Assembly (NCBI GenBank): GCA_963721455.1
Contig: CAVRJG010000012.1
Coordinates: 1 to 52,426, forward strand
Length of the DNA: 52,426 nucleotides
Source of the DNA: an uncultured Methanosarcinaceae archaeon
Lineage (GTDB): Archaea; Halobacteriota; Methanosarcinia; Methanosarcinales; Methanosarcinaceae
Direction: 5' to 3'
Part shown: positions 30,733 through 51,424 of the stretch, in pieces
How positions within the stretch are numbered: the stretch's first letter is position 1
Layout of the letters: each line of letters starts with the position of its first letter
Position numbers and translations under genes: made by a program
The notes under the pieces: generated by a model
The model's input: the letters and a program-made list of their open reading frames with translations, nothing else
What the model was told of the DNA's origin: nothing
Databases searched by the model: none

Positions 30733-30912
30733 GGCTCTTCGTTGTTTTGTGTGGGTTGAAAATAATTGCTTAGTTAGAAATTTGGTCGGCCAAAAAGAGG
30801 AACATCAAGCTTGAATGTGGTTTTCAACAACAAATGGGTTCTAAATTTCAGATATGCTACTTTAACATTCAGGAGATGAATAAAAGTTACCTACTCGAAA
30901 CAGCGAAGAGCC
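30733..30912. mobile_element. ~180-bp MITE (GGCTCTTCG family), diverged copy
   Basis: TIRs GGCTCTTCGTTGTTT / AAACAGCGAAGAGCC. The interior is homologous to 35103-35280 and 48075-48252. Confidence 0.85.
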
Positions 30913-35102: not shown

Positions 35103-35280
35103 GGCTCTTCGCTGTTTCGAGTGGGTAATTTACATCCATTTATAACTATGGAAGTAGCATGCATAAAATTTAGAAACGTTTGTTGTTGAAAATCACAGTC
35201 AAACTCGATGTTTTTCATTTTGGCCGGACAACTGTCTAACTAAACAATTATTTTCAACCCATACAAAACAGCGAAGAGCC
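35103..35280. mobile_element. 178-bp MITE (GGCTCTTCG family), inverted relative to the other two copies
   Basis: Perfect 15-bp TIR GGCTCTTCGCTGTTT. Nearly the exact reverse complement of 48075-48252. Confidence 0.9.
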
Positions 35281-35427
35281 TAAAAGATTATATATTCATA
35301 AGTTTTGTCAAATCCATTTAAGCTAAAAATAGGATCTATTTTCACTATGAATTAGTGGATACTGTCAAACTTAGGAAACAGAAGACAGGATTCGATCTTT
35401 ATCGATAATATTATATACGTAAAGTAC

Positions 35428-47617: not shown

Positions 47618-48074
47618 GAATTATTTCAACGCTAATAGATATTCCGTGCTTAATCGATTGGTACTATTCCAAGGCAACATGCATAGTATCTTCCGGTCGT
47701 TCATGGCGGAGTCAAACAAAAGTGGGCTTTGTTGCTTTCTCATAAGATGAAAGAGAAGAAAGGGGAAACTCTAAGAAAGAAGCTTGAAAAAGCAGAGACG
47801 TCTTTTAAAAAGCTGAAAGGAGAGGACTTCTTCTGTGAAGAAGATGGATTAAAAGTTGCAGATAAATGGATTCAAGAATTCTCTTCTGTCATGTTTGATA
47901 AAGTAGATTTAAAAGCCATTAATAAACGTGAACCGGGTAAAAGAGGCAGACCTTCAAAAGATGAGAAATTAAAGACATATTGCAGGATTGAAGGCAACAT
48001 AAAGGTTAATGATGCTTGTATTTTGAAAGAAATGGAGAAAATGGGGCTTTTCCTTCTTGCAAGTAATGATATCA

Positions 48075-48252
48075 GGCTCTTCGCTGTTTTGTATGGGTTG
48101 AAAATAATTGCTTAGTTAGACAGTTGTCCGGCCAAAATGAAAAACATCGAGTTTGACTGTGATTTTCAACAACAAACGTTTCTAAATTTTATGCATGCTA
48201 CTTCCATAGTTAGAAATGGATGTAAATTACCCACTCGAAACAGCGAAGAGCC
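48075..48252. mobile_element. 178-bp MITE (GGCTCTTCG family)
   Basis: Perfect 15-bp TIRs. It replaces the middle of the IS1634 transposase. Confidence 0.9.
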
Positions 48253-48372
48253 ACTTAACTCAGAAAGAAGAGGAAATTGAGTCAGAAATATTGAATATGG
48301 AGGAGATTCACTGGAAAATATTGAGTCTCATGGGAAAGAAATATGAAAATATCTACCTATAAGTACGTTAAC

Positions 48373-49099
48373 GTCGGATAAGTTGGGAGGATTACTCCTC
48401 CTTTCTCCCCCAGGAACCGTACTTGAAAGTTTCCCTTCATACGGCTCGAGTGTTTTCAAACCTTTTCTGTATCAGGCATCAGTCATTTTGCATAACTGAT
48501 TTTGTGATTCCGGCTAACAGTCCACTAACAGAACTGTCCGTAAGCCTCTCACCTGTAGGTGTCTTTGAGTATCTTACATTCGTGAGTTTGTTTCCGTTCA
48601 CACAAGAAAACACCATCAGTAAGTCTGCATCCTTTCGGATCAAGGCAAAGTTTGAACCTCTATCCAGCCCATTACAGGCTGAGCATTCGCTTTTTACTGA
48701 ATCCTCTACCCTCAATGCCTTCGTCATCCTTCGCGAGAATCCTACCCATTATGGGAGCATTTAGGGTTTAGCAGGTTCCATACCACGAATAATGTGAATA
48801 CCTTAGAAGCCATCTGTAAACCGAGAACCGTTTGTCCATTTGCCATAATGTCGGCAGACCCATTATGGCCTGATTCTATACCTTTTGGTTTGAACGTGTC
48901 AACCTGTTTTCGCTCATTCTACTTCACGATTTTTACGATGGTTCACTTTATGTTCTTCATAGTATTCTTATCCTAACCAATTATCAAAGTCAGGCTCCTT
49001 GATTTCTTGATATTGTCCTGTGAGCTTCACACACAAACGTTACCATTTATGCATGTCACATTAGGATTACCTCAAATGGAGGGGGTGGCGTTTCCGCAA
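48373..49099 (-). mobile_element. ORF-less group II intron (~727 nt)
   Basis: Domain V GAGCCGTATGAAGGGAAACTTTCAAGTACGGTTC (48447-48414), domain VI with a bulged A ending ...CTTATCCGAC, 5' end TTGCG at 49099, and an EBS2/IBS2 match. Confidence 0.9.
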
Positions 49100-49317
49100 T
49101 TCATAGTATAGCCTCTTGTCGAATCTGCCGAATGCAGGATAAAAATATTATCTAAAAAATTGTTTATCAATACCGGGCAAACAAGAGTTCAGATACTCTC
49201 TCAGTTTACCCAGGTAAAAAACTGCAAAAAAGAAAATGAAGGTCTAAAACCCTCATTCTGTTGCTTTTATTTAATCGTTTTGTTGTTTTTATTTAATCCT
49301 TTTGTCTCTGTCTCTAA

Positions 49318-51424
49318 TTAATTTCCTGGTTTTACTTTTTTGTACAGGAATAAGGCAAGAAGGGAAATAACTCCGTAAACCGTTTCAAATCCAGGAGAGC
49401 GTGCGCTTGCTCTTTTTTCAAGTGCCTGTTCAACATTTGACCTGTTTATAACGTCAGTATTCTCTCCGTTAAGGTCGTTAGCTTTCGATCCAGGCTGTGG
49501 ACCAGGCGGTGAATCAGTTACTGCAGTTTCTTCCTCCTCATTCTTACCTGTTATTGCAAAGAATGAGAAGCCGGGGGTTTGTGCTGTGAAATACAGGAAT
49601 CTGTCATCTTCCTCTGACAGGCTTACTGGCAATTGCTCCCATTTCCCGTCGTCGTACCTGTTGAAGGTGATAGAAGATTTATTGATGTTCTTTTCCTGTA
49701 TCCAGGATTTTTCAACCTTGAAATATATGGTCGAATTTTCGATATTCTCAGAGGTTGCATACCCGCCGTTTCCGACCCAGATATTAAAAGACCTGTAGAC
49801 CTCGCCTGAAGGCAGCTCGGAGACAAGTGCAGGATTTCTCTTTAACATCTCGACTATGGCTGTTGTCTTACCAACTGTCTTTTTTGCGTCAAAGTTCACA
49901 TACACAACACAGGTTGCGTTCTTTGCGAAATCAAACTTTATATTTTTGTCGTTTGAGATAAATGTCTGTGAAATTTCCTTTACCTCTACATTTTTTGCAG
50001 GTTCAGGGGAACCGCCTGCACCGCCGCCGCCACCGCTGCTGTGGCTGCTTCCACCACTGCTTCCATCATCTTCAGTTCCGCTGTCCTCAGTTTGACTGTA
50101 ACCGGTTCCACCGCCACTCGCTTGACTGTCTCCGGCTACATTATCCCCGCTGCTGCTTTCAGTCCCGCTATTTTCAGTAATATTTTCAGTAATATTATCT
50201 CCGGTTCCGGTGTTTTCAGTTACATTATCCACGGTTACGTTGTTTGCGGAATTATTTTCCATGGCTTGCGTAACAGTTACCGGGGCAGTTTTGGAAGCCG
50301 CTCCATTTTCATTGGTGACAGTGAGGGTGACGGTATAAGTTCCCGGCATTGTAAACGTATAAACCGGATTTTCGTCTATAGAGTCAATATTTCCGTCGTT
50401 TTCAAAATCCCAGCTCCACGAAACTGCATTTTCTGACAGGTCGGTAAACTGGACGGAAACAGGAGCAGGACCGCTGCTATTGTCCATTTTGAAATCTGCT
50501 ACCGGAAATACTGGCTGCTGAGGCATGGATGCAGATACAAGAGGTAACTGGTCAGAATAGATACTATTAGCGAGTCTATATGCAGAATCCGCAATGCCAT
50601 CTCCATCCGCATCTATTGAGGTTTCAGAAAAACCTGAACCATCAGGTTCTGCCCAGAAATTACCTCCAAAGTAGGAACCGCCGACAATATTCGTACCTTC
50701 GGTTTTTGTGGTATTGTACGAATTTCCGATTCCGTTTTTAATTTCTGCATTGACGGTATTATTGAAATAGTTGTTAAAAACAAGGTTATTATCGCTCTTG
50801 GAACAGACAAACAGGCCGTAAACGCCATTTGAAGACATGGTATTGCCTGAGAGCGTGTTGCCGTCAGAAGTACCTATATGGATGCCACGGCCTTTATTGT
50901 CAGAAGCCGTATTTCCGGAGAGGGTATTGTTGCTGGCTATTGAGAATAAGATCCCGTATTCTCCGTTATTCGTAACCTTATTATTTGAGAGCGTGTTGCC
51001 TTTAGAATTTAAAAGATAGATTCCATAACCGTTGTTCAAAATTTTATTGTTATCAATGATGCAGTTATTACAGCCGGGAAAGATAGATTCCTGTATAGCT
51101 TTCTTTTGTTCCTGTAATCTCAAGCCCGCTAATTTTCACGTTATCTGCTTGCAGGGCAAGCACATGATTGCTTGAGCTTTTAGCCGTGATTATTGTATCA
51201 TCAGGATTACCGGACTCCGACCTTATTACGAGATCATCCTTGTTTATTTTGATATTTTCGGTATAGGTTCCGGGTTTTAAGATAATCACATCGCCTGAAA
51301 TTGCATTGTCCACTGCCGTTTGTATCGAATCTCCGGGCTGGACATAAATCTCAGCTGCAGTTCCGATACCCGAGCCTAATGTTAAGATAAGAAAAGTTGC
51401 CAATACAATGATTAATCTGTTCAC
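49318..51424 (-). CDS. Cell-surface protein (signal peptide, NosD/CASH beta-helix, PKD, PGF-pre-PGF, PGF-CTERM), frameshifted near 51076
   Basis: GDSIQTAVD, repeated GI-L--S-NNTLSGN, GGNFWA, VQFTDLS-NA-SWSWDF, TPGFSFFAI and a SPGF+TM+basic tail. An extra C in TCCCGGC splits the ORF. Confidence 0.9.

Follow-up and report, generated by a model that had tools for sequence, protein, structure and literature searches.

Group II introns have long been known from the archaeal genus Methanosarcina, where members that encode a reverse transcriptase (RT) and members without an open reading frame (ORF-less introns) are nested in one another and, as PMC4424553 describes them, have no coding exons. The intron reported here adds a member to that set. 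It lies near one end of a contig of 52,426 nucleotides (CAVRJG010000012.1, contig C12 below), analysed over its full length and referred to as the window, from the genome of an uncultured Methanosarcinaceae archaeon (GCA_963721455.1, genome G000 below; 73 contigs, 3.94 Mb). On our account, which taken as a whole we consider very likely to be correct, positions 48373-49124 of the minus strand are a 752-nt ORF-less group II intron set into the terminal inverted repeat of an insertion sequence (IS) of the IS1634 family.

RmInt1 of Sinorhizobium meliloti offers one point of comparison: like the present family, it has an intron-encoded protein (IEP) without an endonuclease domain and a homing site in a multicopy element (ISRm2011-2), but that site lies in the IS body or transposase gene rather than in the terminal repeat, and the intron class differs. 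The nearest described introns are those of M. acetivorans and M. mazei (Dai & Zimmerly 2003, as relayed in PMC4424553 and PMC2882425), which belong to the same genus as judged by the nearest named relatives and by an RF00029 control. They likewise comprise ORF-less beside RT-encoding forms, have no coding exons and home into mobile DNA; in the description given by PMC4424553, however, that DNA consists of other introns, whereas here it is the repeat tip of IS1634 elements and of MITEs (miniature inverted-repeat transposable elements). In the cyanobacterium Thermosynechococcus elongatus, according to the account in PMC2882425, deletion of the ORF gave rise to ORF-less derivatives, which the RTs of their relatives mobilise, as shown experimentally, and one family, F4, occupies a conserved site in the element ISEL1. 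The present family resembles the T. elongatus introns, as they are portrayed there, in its diverged target specificity, its preference for introns and insertion elements, and its identical copies, which signal recent bursts; it differs in that the cyanobacterial target is of the IS200 family (PMC2882425), and in that mobility is deduced here from sequence comparison. Class C (IIC) introns insert at terminators and at attC imperfect inverted repeats, where a DNA stem-loop and a short intron-binding site 1 (IBS1) are recognised, and so share with the present family, within what PMC4424553 states of them, insertion at a short repeated motif of another genetic element. Unlike those introns as characterised there, the present ones have a 7-bp pairing of exon-binding site 1 (EBS1) with IBS1 that covaries with the target, and a class C-like target hairpin (CCTGC...GCAGG), considered as a candidate, was dropped, as it is not conserved among the tips in use.

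Only two Rfam models match within the window, and both fall inside the intron: RF00029 (domains V-VI) at 48373-48449 of the minus strand, with 58.0 bits against a gathering score of 40, and RF02012 (group-II-D1D4-7, a domain I model) at 48977-49087 of the same strand, with 66.5 bits against a gathering score of 34. These matches bear out the ORF-less group II intron that an earlier note on this DNA had read from the letters of that strand. Homology among 16 copies in the genome spans GTGCGACAAGAAG to ...CCGAC, with the terminal AC of the window copy at 48374-48373; at the other end, comparison of the flanks shows homology passing CTATAC and extending 13 nt further, to GTGCGACAAGAAG, and each close copy has ...TTC[C/G]GCAG directly before that point. 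Three intron-free paralogues (on contigs C30, C13 and C67) read ...GTTAAC|CTGCCGAATGTAGG on the plus strand before their flanks diverge, the actual empty-site junction in all three being GTTAAC|CTGCCGAATG. From the limits of homology among the copies and from these three empty sites, the intron is therefore as follows.

48373..49124, minus strand: ORF-less group II intron, 752 nt, with 5' ATTCG (GTGCG in relatives) and 3' AC

The earlier note had placed the 5' end at a TTGCG (49099) within a span given up to 49111, which is 13-25 nt off by homology and by the three empty sites (49124), and had proposed a search for empty alleles; such alleles exist, but the junction it had predicted (GTTAAC|TTCATAG) does not occur. 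Differing boundaries, which the note itself had listed among the outcomes that would count against it, are what we find at the 5' end.

The fold supports the same limits. RNAalifold was run on an alignment of 14 sequences (A1: six copies from this genome and eight from seven other genomes of the genus) and gave a consensus with the six-domain architecture (DI-DVI) of group II introns, comprising 225 pairs in 38 helices. Paired cells amount to 98.6%, compared with 93.9 ± 0.2 in shuffled alignments, and 52 of the 225 pairs are changed on both sides, compared with 34 ± 2.6 (in neither case do any of 500 shuffles reach the observed value), although the pairs were counted on the same alignment that yielded the fold and the figures are flattered to that extent. 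When the partners are slid by 1-3 columns, only 7-11 pairs are changed on both sides. Compensatory changes are present in most helices of DI-DIII. The domains are placed as follows.

49118-48772, minus strand: domain I (consensus fold and pair counts; RF02012 at 48977-49087)
49111-49099 with 48790-48778, minus strand: basal stem of domain I (helix 2), 13 pairs, 4 of them changed on both sides
48767-48708, minus strand: domain II (helices 19-21), 7 pairs with compensatory change
48700-48616, minus strand: domain III (helices 22-26)
48614-48449, minus strand: domain IV, closing stem GGTGTTTTC / GAAAACAC, with the 5' remnant of an ORF inside
48447-48414, minus strand: domain V, 34 nt, AGC at positions 2-4 and a GAAA loop (RF00029 alignment, helix 36)
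48410-48376, minus strand: domain VI, bulged branch-point A at 48379 (RF00029 alignment; column 767 of the consensus fold, unpaired)

The domain V with its triad and loop, the bulged A of domain VI with the terminal AC at 48373, and the closing stem of domain IV all stand as the earlier note had them. Its 5' exon does not: the CTATAC-TATGAA that it had assigned to the exon (49111-49100) belongs to the intron, as the 5' strand of the domain I basal stem, and the TTCGTG that it had offered as EBS1 lies in the 3' strand of that stem (48790-48778). The pairing of CTATAC-TATGAA with TTCGTG is thus real but was wrongly assigned.

With the 5' boundary moved, the elements of exon recognition fall elsewhere.

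49125..49138, minus strand: 5' exon, the outermost 14 nt of an IS1634 terminal inverted repeat, CCTGCATTCGGCAG
49131-49125, minus strand: IBS1, TCGGCAG, the last seven bases of the 5' exon
48857-48851, minus strand: EBS1, CUGCCGA, in the loop of a hairpin at 48869-48842

EBS1 and IBS1 form seven of seven pairs in the window copy, and they covary across relatives, with at least five different matched pairs by inspection. The main ORF-less subfamily (type B) has EBS1 CUGCGGA and exon TCCGCAG; a divergent copy on contig C49 has UACAGAA and TTCTGTA; a relative in another genome (G019) has GGCAUGA and TCATGCC; and RT-encoding relatives in named Methanosarcina and Methanosarcinaceae records add UUACCG/CGGTAA and UUACAG/CTGTAA. 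The match is looser in two copies of genome G001 and one of G037, where EBS1 fits the exon with a wobble pair or one mismatch, and a relative in G003 has an extra G at the junction. For a second exon-binding site, the GTATAG at 48876-48881 proposed by the earlier note is not EBS2 for this exon, as the empty sites and the fold rule out the scheme to which it belonged. Two CAGG loops of the window copy (48908-48901 and 48874-48867) could pair with the CCTG of the tip and are candidates for the EBS2-IBS2 contact: tips with CCTG make up 5 of 5 occupied type-A tips and 14 of 67 empty ones (Fisher p = 0.0008, or 0.003 with a duplicated twin counted once, the events being non-independent), yet type-B introns share the CAGG and use tips that are not CCTG.

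The exon on which EBS1 acts is one of many equivalent sites. The 14-mer to which it belongs, CCNNCNTTC[C/G]GCAG, occurs 97 times in the genome, where 1.6 occurrences are expected from base composition. About 30 inverted pairs of this 14-mer are 230-278 bp apart and flanked by direct repeats of 5-7 bp, which makes them MITEs; other inverted pairs are 1.7-1.9 kb apart and enclose a transposase gene. We took the identity of the host element from an intact paralogue of 1719 bp with the same ends (C30:7276-8994), whose 542-aa transposase scores 390.3 bits on the NCBIfam model for the IS1634 family (NF033559, cut-off 100), with further matches to DUF4277 and DDE_Tnp_1. Together with the transposase remnant in the window, this upholds the earlier note's view of an IS1634-family host entered in antisense: the intron is oriented against the transposase and, from the right end, reads into the element. 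The two ends of the intact element match over more than 20 bp (CCTAC[T/A]TTCGGCAGGT[A/T]AAC...), and the insertion therefore lies within the repeat and not in a spacer before it. The intron sits inside the terminal inverted repeat, between the 14th and the 15th base from the tip; it does not occupy a gap between the transposase stop and the terminal repeat, as had been supposed, and it does not follow from a site within the repeat that the IS would escape disruption. Paralogues have such ends at both sides and flanking direct repeats of 5-7 bp, whereas the window element has its right end only. What is left of it reads as follows.

47696..48372, plus strand: truncated IS1634-family body (tblastn with the 542-aa paralogue; blastn to C30, C13 and C67)
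47696-48079, plus strand: transposase residues 278-409 (tblastn remnant)
48075..48253, unstranded: MITE-like repeat of 179 bp, replacing about 299 bp of the IS body, with inverted ends of about 26 bp (GGCTCTTCGCTGTTT...)
48255-48359, plus strand: transposase residues 508-542 (tblastn remnant)
ending at 48372, plus strand: inner part of the right inverted repeat (IS1634 remnant)

The host IS thus lacks its left end and the N-terminal 277 codons of its transposase. The 179-bp MITE-like repeat within it has at least 15 copies in the genome at 96-99% identity, two others of them in the window (35103-35281 and 30733-30912). Pfam searches with four short ORFs in the vicinity of the intron (47729-48115, 48137-48280, 48216-48362 and 48479-48727) returned nothing above cut-off.

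Besides its ORF-less copies, the genome holds three introns of about 2143 nt that share with them the first ~576 nt (86% identity) and the last ~100 nt (72%). Each of the three carries an intact ORF of 497 aa, 99.8-100% identical between copies, whose product combines RVT_N, RVT_1 and GIIM domains but lacks an HNH domain. Alignment of the window intron with these longer relatives covers DI-DIII and extends over the first ~55 codons of their ORF, and the intron's peptide VNGNKLTNVRYSKTP is homologous to the start of their RT ORF; the remnant reads LMVFSCVNGNKLTNV...ITKSVMQND*, the parent LVFYCMKGGKLLNV...ITKAVMQNKWNH.

About 48619-48479, minus strand: 5' remnant of the RT ORF (LMVFSCVNGNKLTNVRYSKTP...VMQND*), with about 46 codons kept

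Local alignment puts the start of the deletion at about codon 60 and its end 17 nt beyond the parental stop, where homology resumes. The earlier note had suspected that domain IV holds the fused start and end of a deleted RT ORF: the start is indeed there, but the end is not. A search for an RT-encoding parent, also suggested at the time, succeeded within the same genome, and these alignments support the view that the window intron derives from an RT-encoding intron still present as three intact copies.

The RT belongs to a wider set. Proteins 85-93% identical to it occur in records from Methanosarcina, Methanosarcinaceae and, once, Methanomethylovorans. Others 55-59% identical come from records of Faecalibacterium, Lachnospiraceae, Ruminococcus and Prevotella (L102-L109, L111 and L117), a distribution that would fit an earlier transfer between bacteria and Methanosarcinales. 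The pattern of introns nested in RT ORFs that is familiar from Methanosarcina, as PMC4424553 presents it, recurs in two relatives from named metagenome-assembled genome records (L130:2263 and L132:953), in which the codons for ...TPQGG in the RT ORF are immediately followed by the start of a further intron.

The 5' end of the window copy sets it apart from its family. Its pentamer is AUUCG, while all 13 of the other aligned members have GUGCG, so that the GUGYG feature typical of the family is wanting in this copy, which departs from the family pentamer at positions 1 and 3; the ATTCG end is found only here and in a twin on contig C25. To that extent the intron is not as complete as it had looked in the earlier note. 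Because its first and third bases are off an otherwise invariant GUGCG, and because its host is truncated, we infer that, provided our overall account holds, the copy is probably a fossil, impaired in splicing and immobile. It combines an EBS1 of the RT-encoding type with an ORF-less body, and shares 91% identity with the active ORF-less subfamily. The twin lies in a block of about 8.7 kb (C25:5884-14621 = C12:52426-43743) that reaches the contig end and is 98.7% identical over the 7.7 kb that include the intron and 94.5% identical over the last 1 kb. The block could have arisen by segmental duplication or stem from a co-assembled strain variant, and the two AUUCG copies therefore represent one insertion event.

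The alternative that fares best is that the window copy is a working ribozyme and retroelement, which splices with its AUUCG end and is served by an RT in trans. We consider this unlikely. Its domains V and VI, its EBS1 hairpin and all its helices are intact (98.6% of cells being paired overall in the alignment), its EBS1 matches the exon at seven of seven positions, intact RT genes of the same EBS1 type exist, and there are relatives with A or U at position 1. Set against this are the two departures from a pentamer shared without exception by the 13 other aligned members, and the single independent insertion of the window subfamily (C12 and C25 being one) compared with seven identical copies in the active subfamily. 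In group II catalysis, moreover, the contacts by which the 5' splice site is organised involve G1 and positions 3-4.

Several points nonetheless count against our own account, in addition to the flattered pair counts and to the type-B introns that carry CAGG yet use other tips. Natural relatives with a first base other than G are on record, ATGCG in L055 and TTGCG in L084, L087 and L088, and AUUCG therefore need not abolish splicing. The genome is a draft of 73 contigs. Contigs from public runs (DNA libraries X1 and X4, RNA libraries X15 and X16; likeness of at least 88%) contained no joint skipping 48373-49124, a result that is uninformative on splicing or expression; what they contained was confined to relatives of the intron, of the MITE and of the IS, and no public run shares half of the sampled words, the best share being 0.18.

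About 190 nt upstream of the intron and on the same strand lies a 601-aa ORF resembling a surface protein (49318-51123, minus), with T-rich runs in between (window 49139-49318). Read-through from this ORF could be the only source of intron RNA.

Across the genome, the family is bound to the repeat tip. There are 12 full-length ORF-less copies at 90-100% identity and one at 80% (on C49), together with one short intron fragment and two distant introns. When the three RT-encoding copies are included, 14 of the 15 full-length close copies directly follow the exact 14-mer and the fifteenth follows a one-mismatch tip variant, TCCACTTTCCGCAG; the truncated copy on C59 likewise follows a 14-mer. Introns occupy 15 of the 97 14-mers, 5 of 72 tips of the TTCGGCAG type and 10 of 25 of the TTCCGCAG type, and 82 are empty. 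The 3' exons vary from copy to copy, since various MITE families and IS copies harbour the introns, and paralogous empty sites were found for 11 of the 16 copies. In a wider comparison, 15 of 59 genomes of the genus carry the junction TTCSGCAG|GTGCGACAAGA, with 14 hits in G000 and at most 5 in any other (a reversed control gave 0), and at ten loci of other genomes close relatives likewise follow a tip resembling ...TTC[C/G]GCAG.

Two copies call for separate mention. The truncated 5' piece on C59 (~165-180 nt, within C59:1454-2600) has its own 5' exon and stands upstream of a full copy with the same 5' flank, an arrangement that is a local tandem duplication. The 80% copy (C49:3888-4646, minus) is the sole one at another site, to which its EBS1 is matched: it is inserted in a different repeat, 23 nt in from the end (GGCAGTGTATCAAAAGTTCTGTA|AAATCTG...), a site that is empty at C50:15599 and C10:1313 and shared by RT-encoding relatives in L122, L124 and L125. 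A second mobile-element end may thus also serve as a target.

Over 749 nt, seven type-B ORF-less copies show 100% identity, with a single base separating an eighth from them; the identical ones lie in different host elements on C54 (two copies), C52, C44, C30, C13 and C8. This distribution points to recent, repeated homing rather than to the spread of a single composite element. The opposite view, in which one intron-bearing IS or MITE transposed with the intron as its passenger, can draw on intron-bearing MITEs that retain both tips and their direct repeats (C15:59908-62310, ttttat/ttttat; C71:26844-27844, taatat/taatat) and on two ORF-bearing copies found at separate loci but within one MITE family. 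It strikes us as improbable, given that identical introns occur in at least seven unrelated host interiors with different 3' exons and that EBS1 covaries with the tip variant; an insert of 0.75-2.1 kb placed 14 nt from the repeat tip should, moreover, make that end harder for the transposase to use, and the pair formed by the window copy and C25 is accounted for by the segmental duplication of ~8.7 kb. Scarcely credible by now is the scheme of the earlier note as a whole (a start at TTGCG, 49099; an exon CTATAC-TATGAA read by EBS2 GTATAG; a target in the gap and an intact IS), for although TTGCG resembles the 5' consensus and has counterparts among the first bases of some relatives, and although CTATAC and GTATAG are complementary in the window copy, homology in all copies reaches GTGCG, 25 nt upstream of TTGCG, in the empty sites GTTAAC is followed by CTGCCGAATG and not by TTCATAG, CTATACTATGAAT pairs with 48790-48778 in an intron-internal stem with compensatory changes, and beyond the intron there is only the 14-nt tip, which is the repeat itself.

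Repeated homing, the reading that we prefer, suggests the following course of events. An RT/maturase intron of 2143 nt would have lost most of its domain IV ORF and so given rise to the ORF-less form of 752 nt, which would have retained the 5' part of the ORF, where a protein-binding site is expected. Other group II introns have their main IEP-binding site in subdomain IVa, around the start of the ORF, and for this reason the segment kept here fits mobilisation in trans. Arrival would have been by retrohoming, in which the 7-bp EBS1-IBS1 pairing set the DNA site for reverse splicing of the intron RNA and the RT was presumably supplied in trans by the ORF-bearing copies. Priming was probably from the nascent strand at the replication fork, because the protein of the RT-encoding copies has no endonuclease domain. 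The target is the outermost 14 nt of the repeat that IS1634-family elements and their MITE derivatives of 230-278 bp have in common, a spot that the whole lineage uses, always reading inward. One subfamily has switched its EBS1 to CUGCGGA, matching the TTCCGCAG tip variant. The window copy would be an old member, in which the 5' consensus decayed from GUGCG to AUUCG, whose host IS lost its left two-thirds and took in a MITE, and whose locus was later copied with ~8.7 kb of its surroundings.

For the window itself, the outcome is mainly a correction of the 5' boundary, of the exon-binding sites and of the insertion site, in a copy that is probably dead. A warning for annotation is that, in this genus, introns of 0.75-2.1 kb may interrupt IS1634 elements and MITEs at their ends. 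With 82 empty and 15 occupied targets, seven identical ORF-less introns and three RT genes, a single genome offers a natural system in which to study trans-mobilisation in an archaeon, the retargeting of EBS1 as set against target variation, and the effect of an intron within the repeat on the transposition of IS elements and MITEs. The combination of a repeat-tip site with an EBS1 switch that follows the tip variants may be a new pattern: the literature that we searched holds no report of group II introns in the inverted repeats of IS1634 elements or MITEs in Methanosarcina, although an earlier description is possible. We propose, tentatively and a little short of believing it, that a lineage of Methanosarcina introns has specialised on IS1634 and MITE repeat tips and retargets its EBS1 as the tips vary (TTCGGCAG versus TTCCGCAG), as a parasite of transposon ends. 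Were this so, the lineage would have a target that renews itself, travels horizontally and is non-essential to the host, and, as a split repeat may disable an end of the IS, the two kinds of mobile element would hold each other in check.

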